From a virus (lineage: Duplodnaviria > Caudoviricetes), in the IMG/VR virus record IMGVR_UViG_2706795367_000001, positions 1 to 64,000 of that record: DNA of 64,000 bases, one strand, 5' to 3'. Below the pieces are notes generated by a model, which had not been told where the DNA came from, ran no database searches, and saw only the letters and a list, made by a program, of their open reading frames with translations. The translations under genes were made by a program, and so were the position numbers. Shown here piece after piece: positions 56,747-59,699 of this stretch (within the stretch, counting starts at the first letter, position 1; each line of letters starts with the position of its first letter).

Positions 56747-56868
56747 TGACTACCCAGGCGATCATCTTCTTCTCTTCCGTGGCAATGGTTCCGGCCCTCG
56801 CCTTCGTTATCGGCGGCGCGCAGGCCTGGGCTGAGCGGTGGTCTTATCGACGGGACTTCTGGCGATGA
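56746..56868 (+). CDS. small membrane peptide
   Basis: MTTQAIIFFSSVAMVPALAFVIG. Confidence 0.55.
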   Translation: MTTQAIIFFSSVAMVPALAFVIGGAQAWAERWSYRRDFWR

Positions 56869-57242
56869 GGACCTGCACGATTCCGGGGTGCGAGAAGAAG
56901 CACCACGCTCGCGGCTTCTGCGTCGTGCACTACCAGCGGTGGAGGCGGCGCTCCGACGAGCCCCGCGGCAACTACCGCCGTAACCATCGGCCGGATTGCA
57001 AGCTGGAATGGTGCAACGGGCGGTTCTACGCCAAGGATCTCTGCCGGTTCCATCACCAGCGTCTCCTCCGTGGCAAGGCCATGGACGACCCGCGCGGCAA
57101 CGTCGGGATCTTCGATTGGGCGGCGTGCGGGACGCCGGCGCAATACAGGAAGCACTTCCGGCACGGCATCCCCTTGTGCGACGCATGCCGGAAAGCTGAG
57201 AGTCGACGTCAGAAGGACCGCCGCGAGAAGGCAAAGCGATGA
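56865..57242 (+). CDS. multi Zn-finger protein
   Basis: Two C-x4-C...C-x2-H repeats plus CGT...H...C..C. Confidence 0.8.
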   Translation: MRTCTIPGCEKKHHARGFCVVHYQRWRRRSDEPRGNYRRNHRPDCKLEWCNGRFYAKDLCRFHHQRLLRGKAMDDPRGNVGIFDWAACGTPAQYRKHFRHGIPLCDACRKAESRRQKDRREKAKR

Positions 57243-57553
57243 AAGATTCTTCCGAACCTTTACGGGGATCTGATCGTCCCAATGCTAAAGTTGACCTTGA
57301 GCAAATCCTCGGAAACTGGAGGCCAGCGTGTGGATTGCGGGAGGACATGCCAGCGCTTCCGGTGTGCGGGAATCCCGCCACGCACGTACTCAACTTTCAT
57401 GGCGGACATTTTGTTCATCTGACTTGCATCCCCTGCTACTACCTCTACATGGAGGCAATCCGTCAGGGGATTGAAACATTCCCCAAGGTGGAATGCACCG
57501 CCTGCGGAGAAGGCGTAGATGCACTCGTTCATCTCAAGCTAACTCCGCTCTAA
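57239..57553 (+). CDS. Cys-rich hypothetical protein
   Basis: C...C...CIPC...CTAC; ATGA overlap. Confidence 0.65.
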   Translation: MKDSSEPLRGSDRPNAKVDLEQILGNWRPACGLREDMPALPVCGNPATHVLNFHGGHFVHLTCIPCYYLYMEAIRQGIETFPKVECTACGEGVDALVHLKLTPL

Positions 57554-57818
57554 GAAACTTCCCCGGCCAAGAGCCGGCGGGCAAAACTTAAAAGCTTCAA
57601 CCGGCGGAATGCCAGCTCCCTCCCAAGTAGACGGGGGTGACGATTCCATCAGCCTTTAGGTGCCGTACGAAGCGTTATATGTGTGACGGGTTAAGTGCTA
57701 CAGGGGCCTGAAAAGGCCGCCCGCGGGGACATAGAAACCTCGCCGTTAGCCGCAAGGCGCGTAGACCCACTTCGGTGGAGGATTAAGCTTACCCATTTTC
57801 TTTGCAGAGAAATCTGCA
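57554..57818 (+). ncRNA. candidate structured ncRNA
   Basis: Intergenic; GAAA, GCAA, UUCG and GAAA tetraloop hairpins plus nested stems. Confidence 0.6.
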
Positions 57819-57879
57819 GCGCACGGCCGGAATGGTTCGGCACGAATTCGTCAAGGTTCAAATCCTTGCGTGCGCACCA
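57819..57879 (+). ncRNA. 61-nt tRNA-like element lacking a true anticodon arm
   Basis: 7-bp acceptor GCGCACG/CGTGCGC + A-CCA; D-like arm GCCG-GAATGGTT-CGGC; T arm CAAGG-TTCAAAT-CCTTG; only ACGAATTCGT between D and T arms. Confidence 0.8.
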
Positions 57880-57880
57880 G

Positions 57881-57939
57881 TCGCGGGGAGTCGAGCCGGC
57901 TTGTTCTAGCCGAGTGTCGGTTCCTCCCCGCGATTTTTT
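57881..57939 (+). terminator. intrinsic terminator
   Basis: TCGCGGGGAG/CTCCCCGCGA stem followed by T6. Confidence 0.8.
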
Positions 57940-57965
57940 GTACCCAAAATCAGGGAGGTTCGCCC

Positions 57966-58265
57966 ATGCTCGGACGTTTCACTGAAGATCAGCAAGTTCT
58001 GCTCGCCTGCTACTGGGCGCTCTCCGACGCCCACCCGCCTCACAAGGGCGAGCTGCGAAAGATGTTCCGCAGCAAGGTGGATACCTCAACCGCGGAGCAC
58101 GCGGTGATCTCCGCCCGCCGCGCCGAGGACTTCCACATCGGCATCGCCGGGGCCCTCACCGAACTGTCCAAGGCCACCCAGAAATACCCCCGCTACGCCT
58201 TCGACCGTTTCCGTCGGGGGACGGGCGTTCCCAACCATCGCAAGGTGCGGGTCCGTGACAACTGA
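57966..58265 (+). CDS. hypothetical protein
   Basis: GGGAGG RBS. Confidence 0.7.
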   Translation: MLGRFTEDQQVLLACYWALSDAHPPHKGELRKMFRSKVDTSTAEHAVISARRAEDFHIGIAGALTELSKATQKYPRYAFDRFRRGTGVPNHRKVRVRDN

Positions 58266-58780: not shown

Positions 58781-58980
58781 ACTACGAATACCAACTGGTG
58801 ATCGCCAAGAACGCCGCAAGGGAAACTGAGGCGTTGATCCGCAACGCCCTCGAATACCTGGCAGAGGCCCGCTCCACGGTGATCGATCACCTCTCCGCCC
58901 CCAATGACATCTACGCCCGGCTGACCATTGTTCAGGACCTCGGCCTGGTGGAAGACAATCTCCGAAAGGCTTTGAAATGA
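58777..58980 (+). CDS. hypothetical protein
   Basis: ATGA overlaps. Confidence 0.65.
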   Translation: MNYEYQLVIAKNAARETEALIRNALEYLAEARSTVIDHLSAPNDIYARLTIVQDLGLVEDNLRKALK

Positions 58981-59699
58981 CCATTGATCTCGACCGCATC
59001 ACCCACCCCCTTCGCCTCGCCAAAGGATCACATCAGCCCGGCTCCGGCAAAGGCTGCGCCATGAACGTGATCTCATACATCAACGGCGACACGGTGATCA
59101 CGGATTACCCGAAGTGCTCGGCCCGCCCGCTCGCCCGCCTGGTGCAGCAGTGCAATGACGAGTTGGCCGACTCGGACGGGTTCTTGGCGCCGGAAAATAG
59201 CGTGCTGGTTTTGGATCTGGGTTGGCAGACCGTCGGAACTGCTGATGTTCCCGAGTCGGTGATGTTGCGGTGGTTGCGCGACATTCTGGTCGATCCGGTG
59301 CATGGGGTTGTGCGTCACGCTCGACCGGATGGGGTTGCGGCCATTAGCCGTGTGGCCGAGTTGTGCGCGCGGCAGGCATCAGGCGTGGAGGTTTCCGGGG
59401 CGGAGTGGCGTTCCGCCCAAGTCGCCGCCAACGCCGCCTACGCCGCCGCCAACGCCACCAACGCCGCCAACGCCGCCTACGCCGCCGCCAACGCCGCCTA
59501 CGCCGCCGGTGTCGCCGCCGCCAACGCCGCCTACGCCGCCGGTGTCGCCGCCGCCGACGCCGCCGACGCCCGAGTCGAGTTCACCCGTTGGGCCATCGCG
59601 CGATGGCGCGCCCTAGCGGGACTCGACACTCCGCGCGATATCGTCACGCAAGAGGTTGACGACGCACTCGCCCGAATCAATGCAGGTATGCCGAAATGA
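58977..59699 (+). CDS. protein with Ala-rich internal repeat tract
   Basis: LRLAKGSH...GCAMN N-terminus; AANAAYAA repeats. Confidence 0.85.
   Translation: MTIDLDRITHPLRLAKGSHQPGSGKGCAMNVISYINGDTVITDYPKCSARPLARLVQQCNDELADSDGFLAPENSVLVLDLGWQTVGTADVPESVMLRWLRDILVDPVHGVVRHARPDGVAAISRVAELCARQASGVEVSGAEWRSAQVAANAAYAAANATNAANAAYAAANAAYAAGVAAANAAYAAGVAAADAADARVEFTRWAIARWRALAGLDTPRDIVTQEVDDALARINAGMPK
59421..59570 (+). repeat. in-frame tandem repeat GCCGCCAACGCCGCCTACGCCGCC x4 with variants
   Basis: Directly visible; encodes AANAAYAA. Confidence 0.9.

Follow-up and report, generated by a model that had tools for sequence, protein, structure and literature searches.

Our analysis showed that a structured RNA, an anticodon-less tRNA mimic, a hairpin and a gene for an Arg-tailed protein are kept together, in one order and behind a promoter-like element, in distant temperate mycobacterial phages. 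The RNA is, in all likelihood, a real and selected structure. It was analysed in the window, that is, the whole stretch of 64,000 nucleotides at positions 1 to 64,000 of IMG/VR record IMGVR_UViG_2706795367_000001, and in homologous loci, which carry handles such as L154.

Results

Setting of the RNA locus

The genome to which the window belongs is that of a 110,764-nt Cluster J mycobacteriophage near Omega. The RNA locus is a gene-free gap in the rightward early operon, about 3 kb beyond a repressor-like gene, and is flanked by the homologues of Omega gp109 (end 57553) and Omega gp111 (start 57966). The Cluster J paper has no passage on non-coding RNA at this site (PMC3706429). The features of the unit are collected in Table 1.

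Table 1. Features of the RNA–protein unit and their positions in the window
Feature	Positions	Strand	Basis or remark
Extended −10 promoter-like element (TGn-TAAAGT)	57283–57291	+	Consensus match only; promoter activity inferred
5′-terminal hairpin, likely near the RNA 5′ end	57560–57581	+	Predicted fold
5′ domain (nested stems of the initial annotation)	57594–57673	+	Lineage-variable
GUGAC (near-invariant) and 5′ strand of closing stem P1	57683–57696	+	Homologue comparison
P2 helix with invariant bulged G, capped by the first GAAA hairpin	57703–57722	+	Covariation
P3 hairpin, the best-covarying helix	57723–57743	+	Covariation
P4 (GCAA hairpin) with near-invariant flanks CGUYAG and GCGCGUAGAC	57744–57766	+	Invariant columns
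P5 (UUCG hairpin), invariant AGGAU junction and 3′ strand of P1	57767–57794	+	Covariation
GAAA hairpin adjoining the mimic	57803–57818	+	Reading as a vestige is inferred
Anticodon-less tRNA mimic	57819–57879	+	7-bp acceptor, D-like arm, stub, T arm, discriminator A, CCA
Long G-C hairpin with inner GAGCCG/CGGYUC helix and U tract	57879–57939	+	Terminator-like
Ribosome site (57953–57958) and partner gene (57966–58265)	57953–58265	+	phrog_6612, Omega gp111

The −10 element is likely to be the promoter of the unit, as inferred from its match to the consensus. In 11 homologues a TARRST hexamer, mostly preceded by TGn, was found about 150–290 nt 5′ of GUGAC. The element of the window lies 397 nt 5′ of GUGAC and its flanking letters match those of L154; a short ORF is present between element and RNA in this lineage. 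The annotated start of the gp109 homologue (57239–57553) overlaps the element. Its real start is more likely the ATG at 57347, which follows a GGAGGA site and gives a product of 68 aa.

Imperfect inverted repeats were seen just 5′ of the extended −10 in the window (57260–57282) and in L154, L162, L169, and L181. It is possible that they are operators for a phage repressor. HNH-type or Cys-rich genes are found in this neighbourhood as well, often directly before the promoter (window 56865–57242; L002:1791-2288; upstream in L153, L154, and L168), and the −10 element of WXIN is inside the 3′ end of an HNH gene. On the other side of the locus, positions 58977–59699 of the window hold an ORF in which Ala-rich repeats (AAYAAANA-like) form an internal run.

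Hairpin cluster and covariation

The initial annotation had described the region 57554–57818 as an undescribed structured RNA on the + strand, with four stable-tetraloop hairpins and three nested stems, and all of these hairpins and stems were confirmed at their positions. Counting GNRA/UNCG loops closed by at least three Watson–Crick pairs, we found four on the + strand and one on the − strand of this region, with a genome mean of 0.26 per 265 nt. In a scan of both strands of the 110,764-nt genome, only segments over this locus had four or more such hairpins, and none of 5,000 dinucleotide shuffles reached four. The 265 nt by themselves are unremarkable in stability when compared with shuffles (z −0.82); the whole unit, 57554–57945, has an unusually stable fold (z −3.5).

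The core (57683–57794) was compared in 14 copies, which were parsed from invariant anchors. The duplex of P1 has −11.0 kcal/mol for cognate strands versus −7.9 kcal/mol for non-cognate ones. The four pair positions of P2 are 100% paired versus 66% in non-cognate combinations (14 sequences), with several compensatory pair types, and the corresponding values are 100% versus 68% for P3 (14 sequences) and 100% versus 82% for P5, where compensatory changes occur at three of four positions. The first pair of P3 is G-C in 7 copies and A-U in 7, and its third pair is G-C in 6 and C-G in 8. The values for P1, P2, P3, and P5 were reached by none of 20,000 permutations. These counts are uncorrected for relatedness and are not probabilities; still, each helix has several different pair types. 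In P4, pairing within the invariant part is beyond the reach of covariation. The letters of the tetraloops vary among homologues (GCAA, UUCG, GUAA, and longer loops replace one another), while helices and junction nucleotides are kept. A covariance model of the core recovered held-out copies at 56–92 bits and found one copy in the genome of the window. A pairing of GGG with a nearby CCC, proposed by RNAalifold, was dropped for the long-range P1, which covaries.

An alternative is that the gap is protein-coding (ORF 57695–57985, Omega gp110) or that the hairpins are a chance cluster. For the coding reading, the ORF is an open frame of 96 codons and matches phrog_33836. However, the spacing between conserved anchors takes all three residues modulo 3, the frame has stops in homologues, the Omega version is frameshifted to 71 codons, and the ORF is unannotated in many Cluster J genomes. 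This ORF, whose translation had been named beforehand as a possible refutation of the RNA, is thus not conserved in homologues. The compensatory changes speak against a chance cluster. We regard both forms of this alternative as practically ruled out, and Omega gp110 is almost certainly a spurious ORF over the RNA.

The claim of an undescribed structured RNA followed by a tRNA mimic and a terminator-like hairpin is therefore supported, because distant homologues covary, the ORF fails, and no Rfam family was found. The + strand sense also held, since it is fixed by G-U pairs and loops. The checks proposed with the claim included covariation among homologues, which was found, and an Rfam cmscan, which matched no family in the five members searched. 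The models of GOLLD and ROOL, which the initial annotation had cited as large phage RNAs often found beside tRNAs, were likewise unmatched in that search, and no relationship to them was detected.

Junction residues and exchangeable modules

The layout common to the family begins with an upstream H-type pseudoknot (usual but not universal), continues with GUGAC, P1, and a U-rich linker, and ends with mimic, hairpin, and gene. A hairpin similar to the 5′-terminal one was found, as judged by eye, right after the −10 element in L162, L178, and L181. The nested fold of the 5′ domain is identical in the window and in Dove. In 14 of 20 homologues the 5′ domain ends in the H-type pseudoknot, versus 25 of 120 shuffles (21%); the pseudoknot shows compensatory changes and is missing in Cluster J.

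P1 is a holder of interchangeable junction modules. A second three-way module, closed by GCAG/CUGC, follows the core in L002, L154, L155, L156, L160, L168, and L169, and L156 has two modules of this type. In L151, L185, and L187 a second-type module sits within P1 itself, and in L188 only six nucleotides close P1 and there is no junction module. The multibranch core is absent from L188 and L186 and is replaced in Cluster L. The core model gave weak scores for second-type modules (9–11 bits, E 0.2–0.8), therefore the kinship of the two module types rests on their common layout and is not established. The GAAA hairpin next to the mimic is likely the collapsed closing stem (GCAG/CUGC) of a second module, although this is inferred. 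The initial annotation had missed this resemblance of its fourth hairpin, the exchangeable nature of the core, which some relatives lack, the P3 hairpin, the upstream promoter, and the conserved protein gene downstream.

The unpaired junction residues CGUYAG, GCGUAGAC, and AGGAU, as well as the bulged G of P2, are nearly invariant. This suggests tertiary folding or a binding site. We dismissed a pairing of GUGAC to the base of the 3′ hairpin, since the hairpin base varies and GUGAC does not.

We also considered whether the RNA is a ribozyme or the relic of a group II intron, with a GUGAC-GGG start, a long closing stem, and a domain 5-like GAGCCG...CGGUUC hairpin. The invariant junction residues and the recurrence of GAGCCG/CGGYUC in the 3′ hairpin are in favour of it, and there is a resemblance to group IIC domain 1. 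However, the Rfam models of group II introns and ribozymes gave no match at E 5–10 in five members. There are three pairs between AGC and the bulge, where domain 5 has five (2-nt bulge). The GAGCCG/CGGYUC motif is missing in Dove-type phages, and neither maturase nor domain 6 was seen. This reading is very improbable.

Range of homologues

By BLAST the region was found in Cluster J and in WXIN, 40 records of Mycobacterium phages in all, and a relaxed sequence pattern led to a prophage copy, L102. The gene behind the RNA is homologous in WXIN (38%), therefore the partner protein was used as a search query. This protein search gave 27 representatives at E ≤0.001. The RNA was present upstream in 13 of 13 loci fetched through the protein (all those with DNA available), at a protein identity of about 30–50%, and was positioned either directly 5′ of the protein gene or one gene off. 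Loci found via the RNA likewise have the partner protein. A refined pattern added L169, L178, L180, and L181. In total, 21 lineages of phages and prophages were found to carry the RNA, and Cluster L has a variant of it.

The first two viral pattern scans gave mostly chance matches. A pattern scan of bacterial genome contigs gave 38 chance matches and no homologue, but this pattern required CCGTYAG and would not have caught a variant with TCGTTAG that turned up later, therefore bacterial genomes are not excluded. In Hannaconda (MN586029.1, 55379–56122) the match to the 461-nt query is split in two and covers 744 nt, owing to an insertion of about 280 nt, which includes an annotated gene, in the RNA region.

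In Cluster L phages the protein homologue is preceded by a tRNA-like domain and a hairpin, but the upstream body is another one. A different conserved non-coding motif lies 5′ of the tRNA-like domain in these phages (L189:1990-2100, L190:1045-1130, and L191:990-1080), and the motif of LeBron matched no family in Rfam. LeBron gp44 is annotated over this motif and is likewise probably a spurious ORF over RNA. The tRNA-like domain of LeBron and DyoEdafos holds a 75-nt insert, a tmRNA-like layout.

The tRNA mimic

The mimic was parsed in 18 of 24 loci. Its acceptor is highly variable in sequence and yet paired, with many pair types, though the score of this stem is inflated because it was picked by best pairing. 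The T loop has the canonical form. The D/anticodon part is 13 to 88 nt long and has no conserved anticodon, the 5′ base is mostly G, the acceptor is followed by a purine and C in 15 of the 18, and few members encode CCA. Degenerate forms occur, with a minihelix in L181 and no recognisable mimic in L160. ARAGORN called neither a tRNA nor a tmRNA on it.

Acceptor, T loop, and such features of the mimic are what RNase P reads. Since the mimic retains them, it is likelier to be a processing handle than a decoder. By inference from sequence alone, the RNA is probably cut at the mimic, and the earlier proposal that it is released by processing at a tRNA-like tag remains an inference.

Alternatively, the released mimic might be the active product and the body its leader, acting as a decoy for tRNA-binding or tRNA-cutting defence proteins or partnering a Ro-like protein. 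No other part of the unit is kept as widely as the mimic, Cluster L included; Pnk and RNA ligase are encoded by phages of Clusters J, E, and L (PMC3706429), and gp53 of LeBron is Ro-like (PMC13148394). However, the mimic has no anticodon with which to decoy an anticodon nuclease, CCA is present in few members, the topology is not of the permuted YrlA type, and L160 has only a degenerate form. A TROVE gene was found in none of five genomes (that of the window and four relatives), while controls were found in two. We consider this alternative unlikely. A search of the genome of the window for DUF2828 gave no match, but no control match either. In L186 (2087–3267) a gene for a 517-aa DUF2828/DUF7788 protein lies two genes beyond the cassette.

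The 3′ hairpin and the partner protein

In 19 of 21 loci there is a hairpin of −19 to −57 kcal/mol, the end of which lies 21–50 nt 5′ of the start codon, and the remaining two (L185 and L169) were mis-parsed. The U content of its tail is 0–5 of 8, so that U tails are absent in several members. The hairpin may be a protein-binding site. The 3′ hairpin of L153 (535–590) is almost letter-identical to window 57880–57935 while RNA body and mimic differ, which suggests that parts are shuffled between phages.

The partner protein has 99 aa, and its model (pLDDT 78) shows three predicted helices and an unstructured Arg-rich tail. In 25 members the last 30 residues contain on average 27% Arg+Lys and 4% Asp+Glu, versus 12% and 13% in the rest. 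No Pfam family was found for it. A fold search with the model gave nothing significant (best Z 4.0, rmsd 5.3, 77 aligned), its sole match among viral structures was the protein itself, and the matches in the ESM Atlas were all below 0.9. A match to a Rev chain at Z 3.1 was rejected as noise. LeBron gp45 is a homologue of the partner protein (hhalign 96%, E 4e-9). In an overexpression screen gp45 was not among the toxic genes, the protein level not being measured there, and LeBron genes 46, 47, 49, 50, 53, and 54, just downstream of it, form a toxic cluster (PMC13148394).

The strict linkage of RNA and gene, the pseudoknot, and the repeated modules would fit a pair like type III toxin-antitoxin systems, in which the RNA neutralises the downstream protein. 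However, LeBron gp45, overexpressed by itself, is not on the toxic list, with the reservation on protein level given above, and the partner protein has no Pfam family and only helices in its model. Such a pair is very unlikely.

Discussion

Comparison with known systems

The unit is like RNAs tagged with mascRNA, and perhaps like CI/C4 or N/nut, but it is a member of none of these. It was also compared with raiA, GOLLD, ROOL, YrlA, tmRNA, and group II introns and fits none of them. The RNA is undescribed in the literature searched, the coverage of which was partial and did not include the 10,006 viral candidate RNAs of PMC10690425.

Like the mascRNA and menRNA of MALAT1 and NEAT1 (RF01684), the mimic is a cloverleaf that lacks an anticodon and closes a longer RNA at its 3′ end, and it suits RNase P and RNase Z. 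The matches to the mascRNA model are weak (25.5 and 20.7 bits) and below the gathering cut-off of 42.5. In contrast to these vertebrate RNAs, the phage unit shows no triple-helix element (one U-rich run was seen) and continues with a hairpin and a dedicated gene. The P4 CI and P1/P7 C4 RNAs are, similarly, RNAs of temperate phages that are cut by RNase P, but they have no T loop (PMC5499578) and act by antisense, of which we found no sign in a coarse test, whereas the phage unit has a protein partner. The C4 model of Rfam was not matched by the phage RNA.

In lambda N/nut, HK022 put, and BglG/LicT-RAT, as in the phage unit, an RNA lies between an early promoter and a terminator-like hairpin. 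N has a basic disordered tail, as the partner protein does, and bglG, like the partner gene, follows right after such a hairpin. However, the partner protein has no sequence or family match to these systems, no alternative antiterminator helix was found, and their RNAs are far smaller than the modular phage RNA, which ends in a tRNA mimic.

GOLLD, ROOL, and raiA are also ornate phage or bacterial RNAs of unknown function, and GOLLD can include tRNAs (10.1101/2024.12.08.627333). The phage RNA is smaller than these, is tied to a protein gene, and does not belong to a tRNA island; neither the window nor L102 has tRNA genes. The raiA motif (RF03072) was found in none of five genomes at E 10 and was absent also from the cmscan of five members. 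Mimicry of the tRNA elbow is shared with the YrlA Y RNA, which acts with Ro60, and with tmRNA, to which the insert in the tRNA-like domain of Cluster L adds a further likeness. However, YrlA is permuted, while the phage mimic has an open acceptor end and no TROVE gene in its genome; unlike tmRNA, the mimic lacks G3-U70, its third acceptor pair being G-C, A-U, or C-G.

Possible function of the cassette

The reading that we favour is that the RNA–protein cassette gates the early lytic operon, although on balance the case for it falls slightly short, and transcription, processing, and binding are all inferred. It is favoured for the fixed order, the position of the hairpin, the Arg-rich tail, the toxic genes that LeBron carries downstream, and the analogy to CI and C4, RNAs cut by RNase P that control the operon whose leader encodes them. 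RNA binders with arginine-rich motifs include lambda N, Tat, and Rev, and the basic unstructured tail of the partner protein is alike. In this view, the unit would be transcribed from the −10 promoter, and the hairpin would by default stop much of the transcription or limit translation. Host RNase P would recognise the acceptor and T arm of the mimic and cut before 57819, giving a body of about 240–300 nt, and 3′ trimming by RNase Z or exonucleases would free the mimic from the message. The Arg-rich tail of the protein may bind its own RNA, at the hairpin bulge or the junction modules, and the complex would then set the level of read-through and translation into the downstream genes. Processing at the mimic may act as a timer or an off-switch.

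No alternative antiterminator helix was found, as the 5′ strand of the hairpin pairs equally well with foreign upstream RNAs (own versus foreign pairing was reached by 2,681 and 10,175 of 20,000 permutations). Antisense pairing to a ribosome site or gene start was not found either (15,171 of 20,000), in a coarse test that can miss loop pairings of 7–8 nt. Therefore any gate would have to be mediated by protein. Several further points count against the gate. Modules are gained, doubled, and lost (L188 has none), more than a precise switch needs. U tails are missing in several members, and the mimic is reduced in L181 and unrecognisable in L160. Also, a cut by RNase P would detach the RNA from the elongating polymerase, which is awkward for a tether of the N/nut type.

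It is also possible, and nearly as likely as the gate, that the cassette makes a stable trans-acting RNA or ribonucleoprotein that serves a host or phage protein as decoy or scaffold. In that case the mimic would be only a mascRNA-like 3′-end tag, the hairpin a terminator, and the protein a stabiliser or co-factor. The unit has its own promoter-like element, and no cis switch was detected. The invariant unpaired junction nucleotides and the repeated modules suggest binding sites or tertiary contacts, and GOLLD and ROOL are phage RNAs near tRNAs whose function is unknown (10.1101/2024.12.08.627333). However, the multibranch core is dispensable (L188, L186) and replaced in Cluster L, a fixed site directly before one gene is more usual for cis elements, and no target was identified.

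A bolder reading, which we would not yet call probable, is that the cassette is a previously undescribed phage ribonucleoprotein, made of a modular RNA with plug-in three-way and multibranch junctions, matured by a mascRNA-like tag, and of an Arg-tailed protein. It would serve mycobacteriophages in processive antitermination or would act in trans, as a machine, on a target in the host. No processive antitermination in mycobacteriophages is described in the literature searched.

Significance

Two annotations would need correction, Omega gp110 and probably LeBron gp44. A tag like that of mascRNA is known mainly from vertebrate long RNAs. If the phage RNA does carry a tRNA-mimic processing tag, this would be a convergence with MALAT1/mascRNA, and the tag could be used as a portable 3′-end element when RNAs are expressed in mycobacteria.

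It is poorly understood how large temperate mycobacteriophages activate long early operons that are rich in toxic genes. In phages of Clusters J and L, as in prophages, the cassette heads the early operon. With it come a new, strongly covarying RNA family and a candidate binding protein, and Omega and LeBron can be cultured in M. smegmatis as models.
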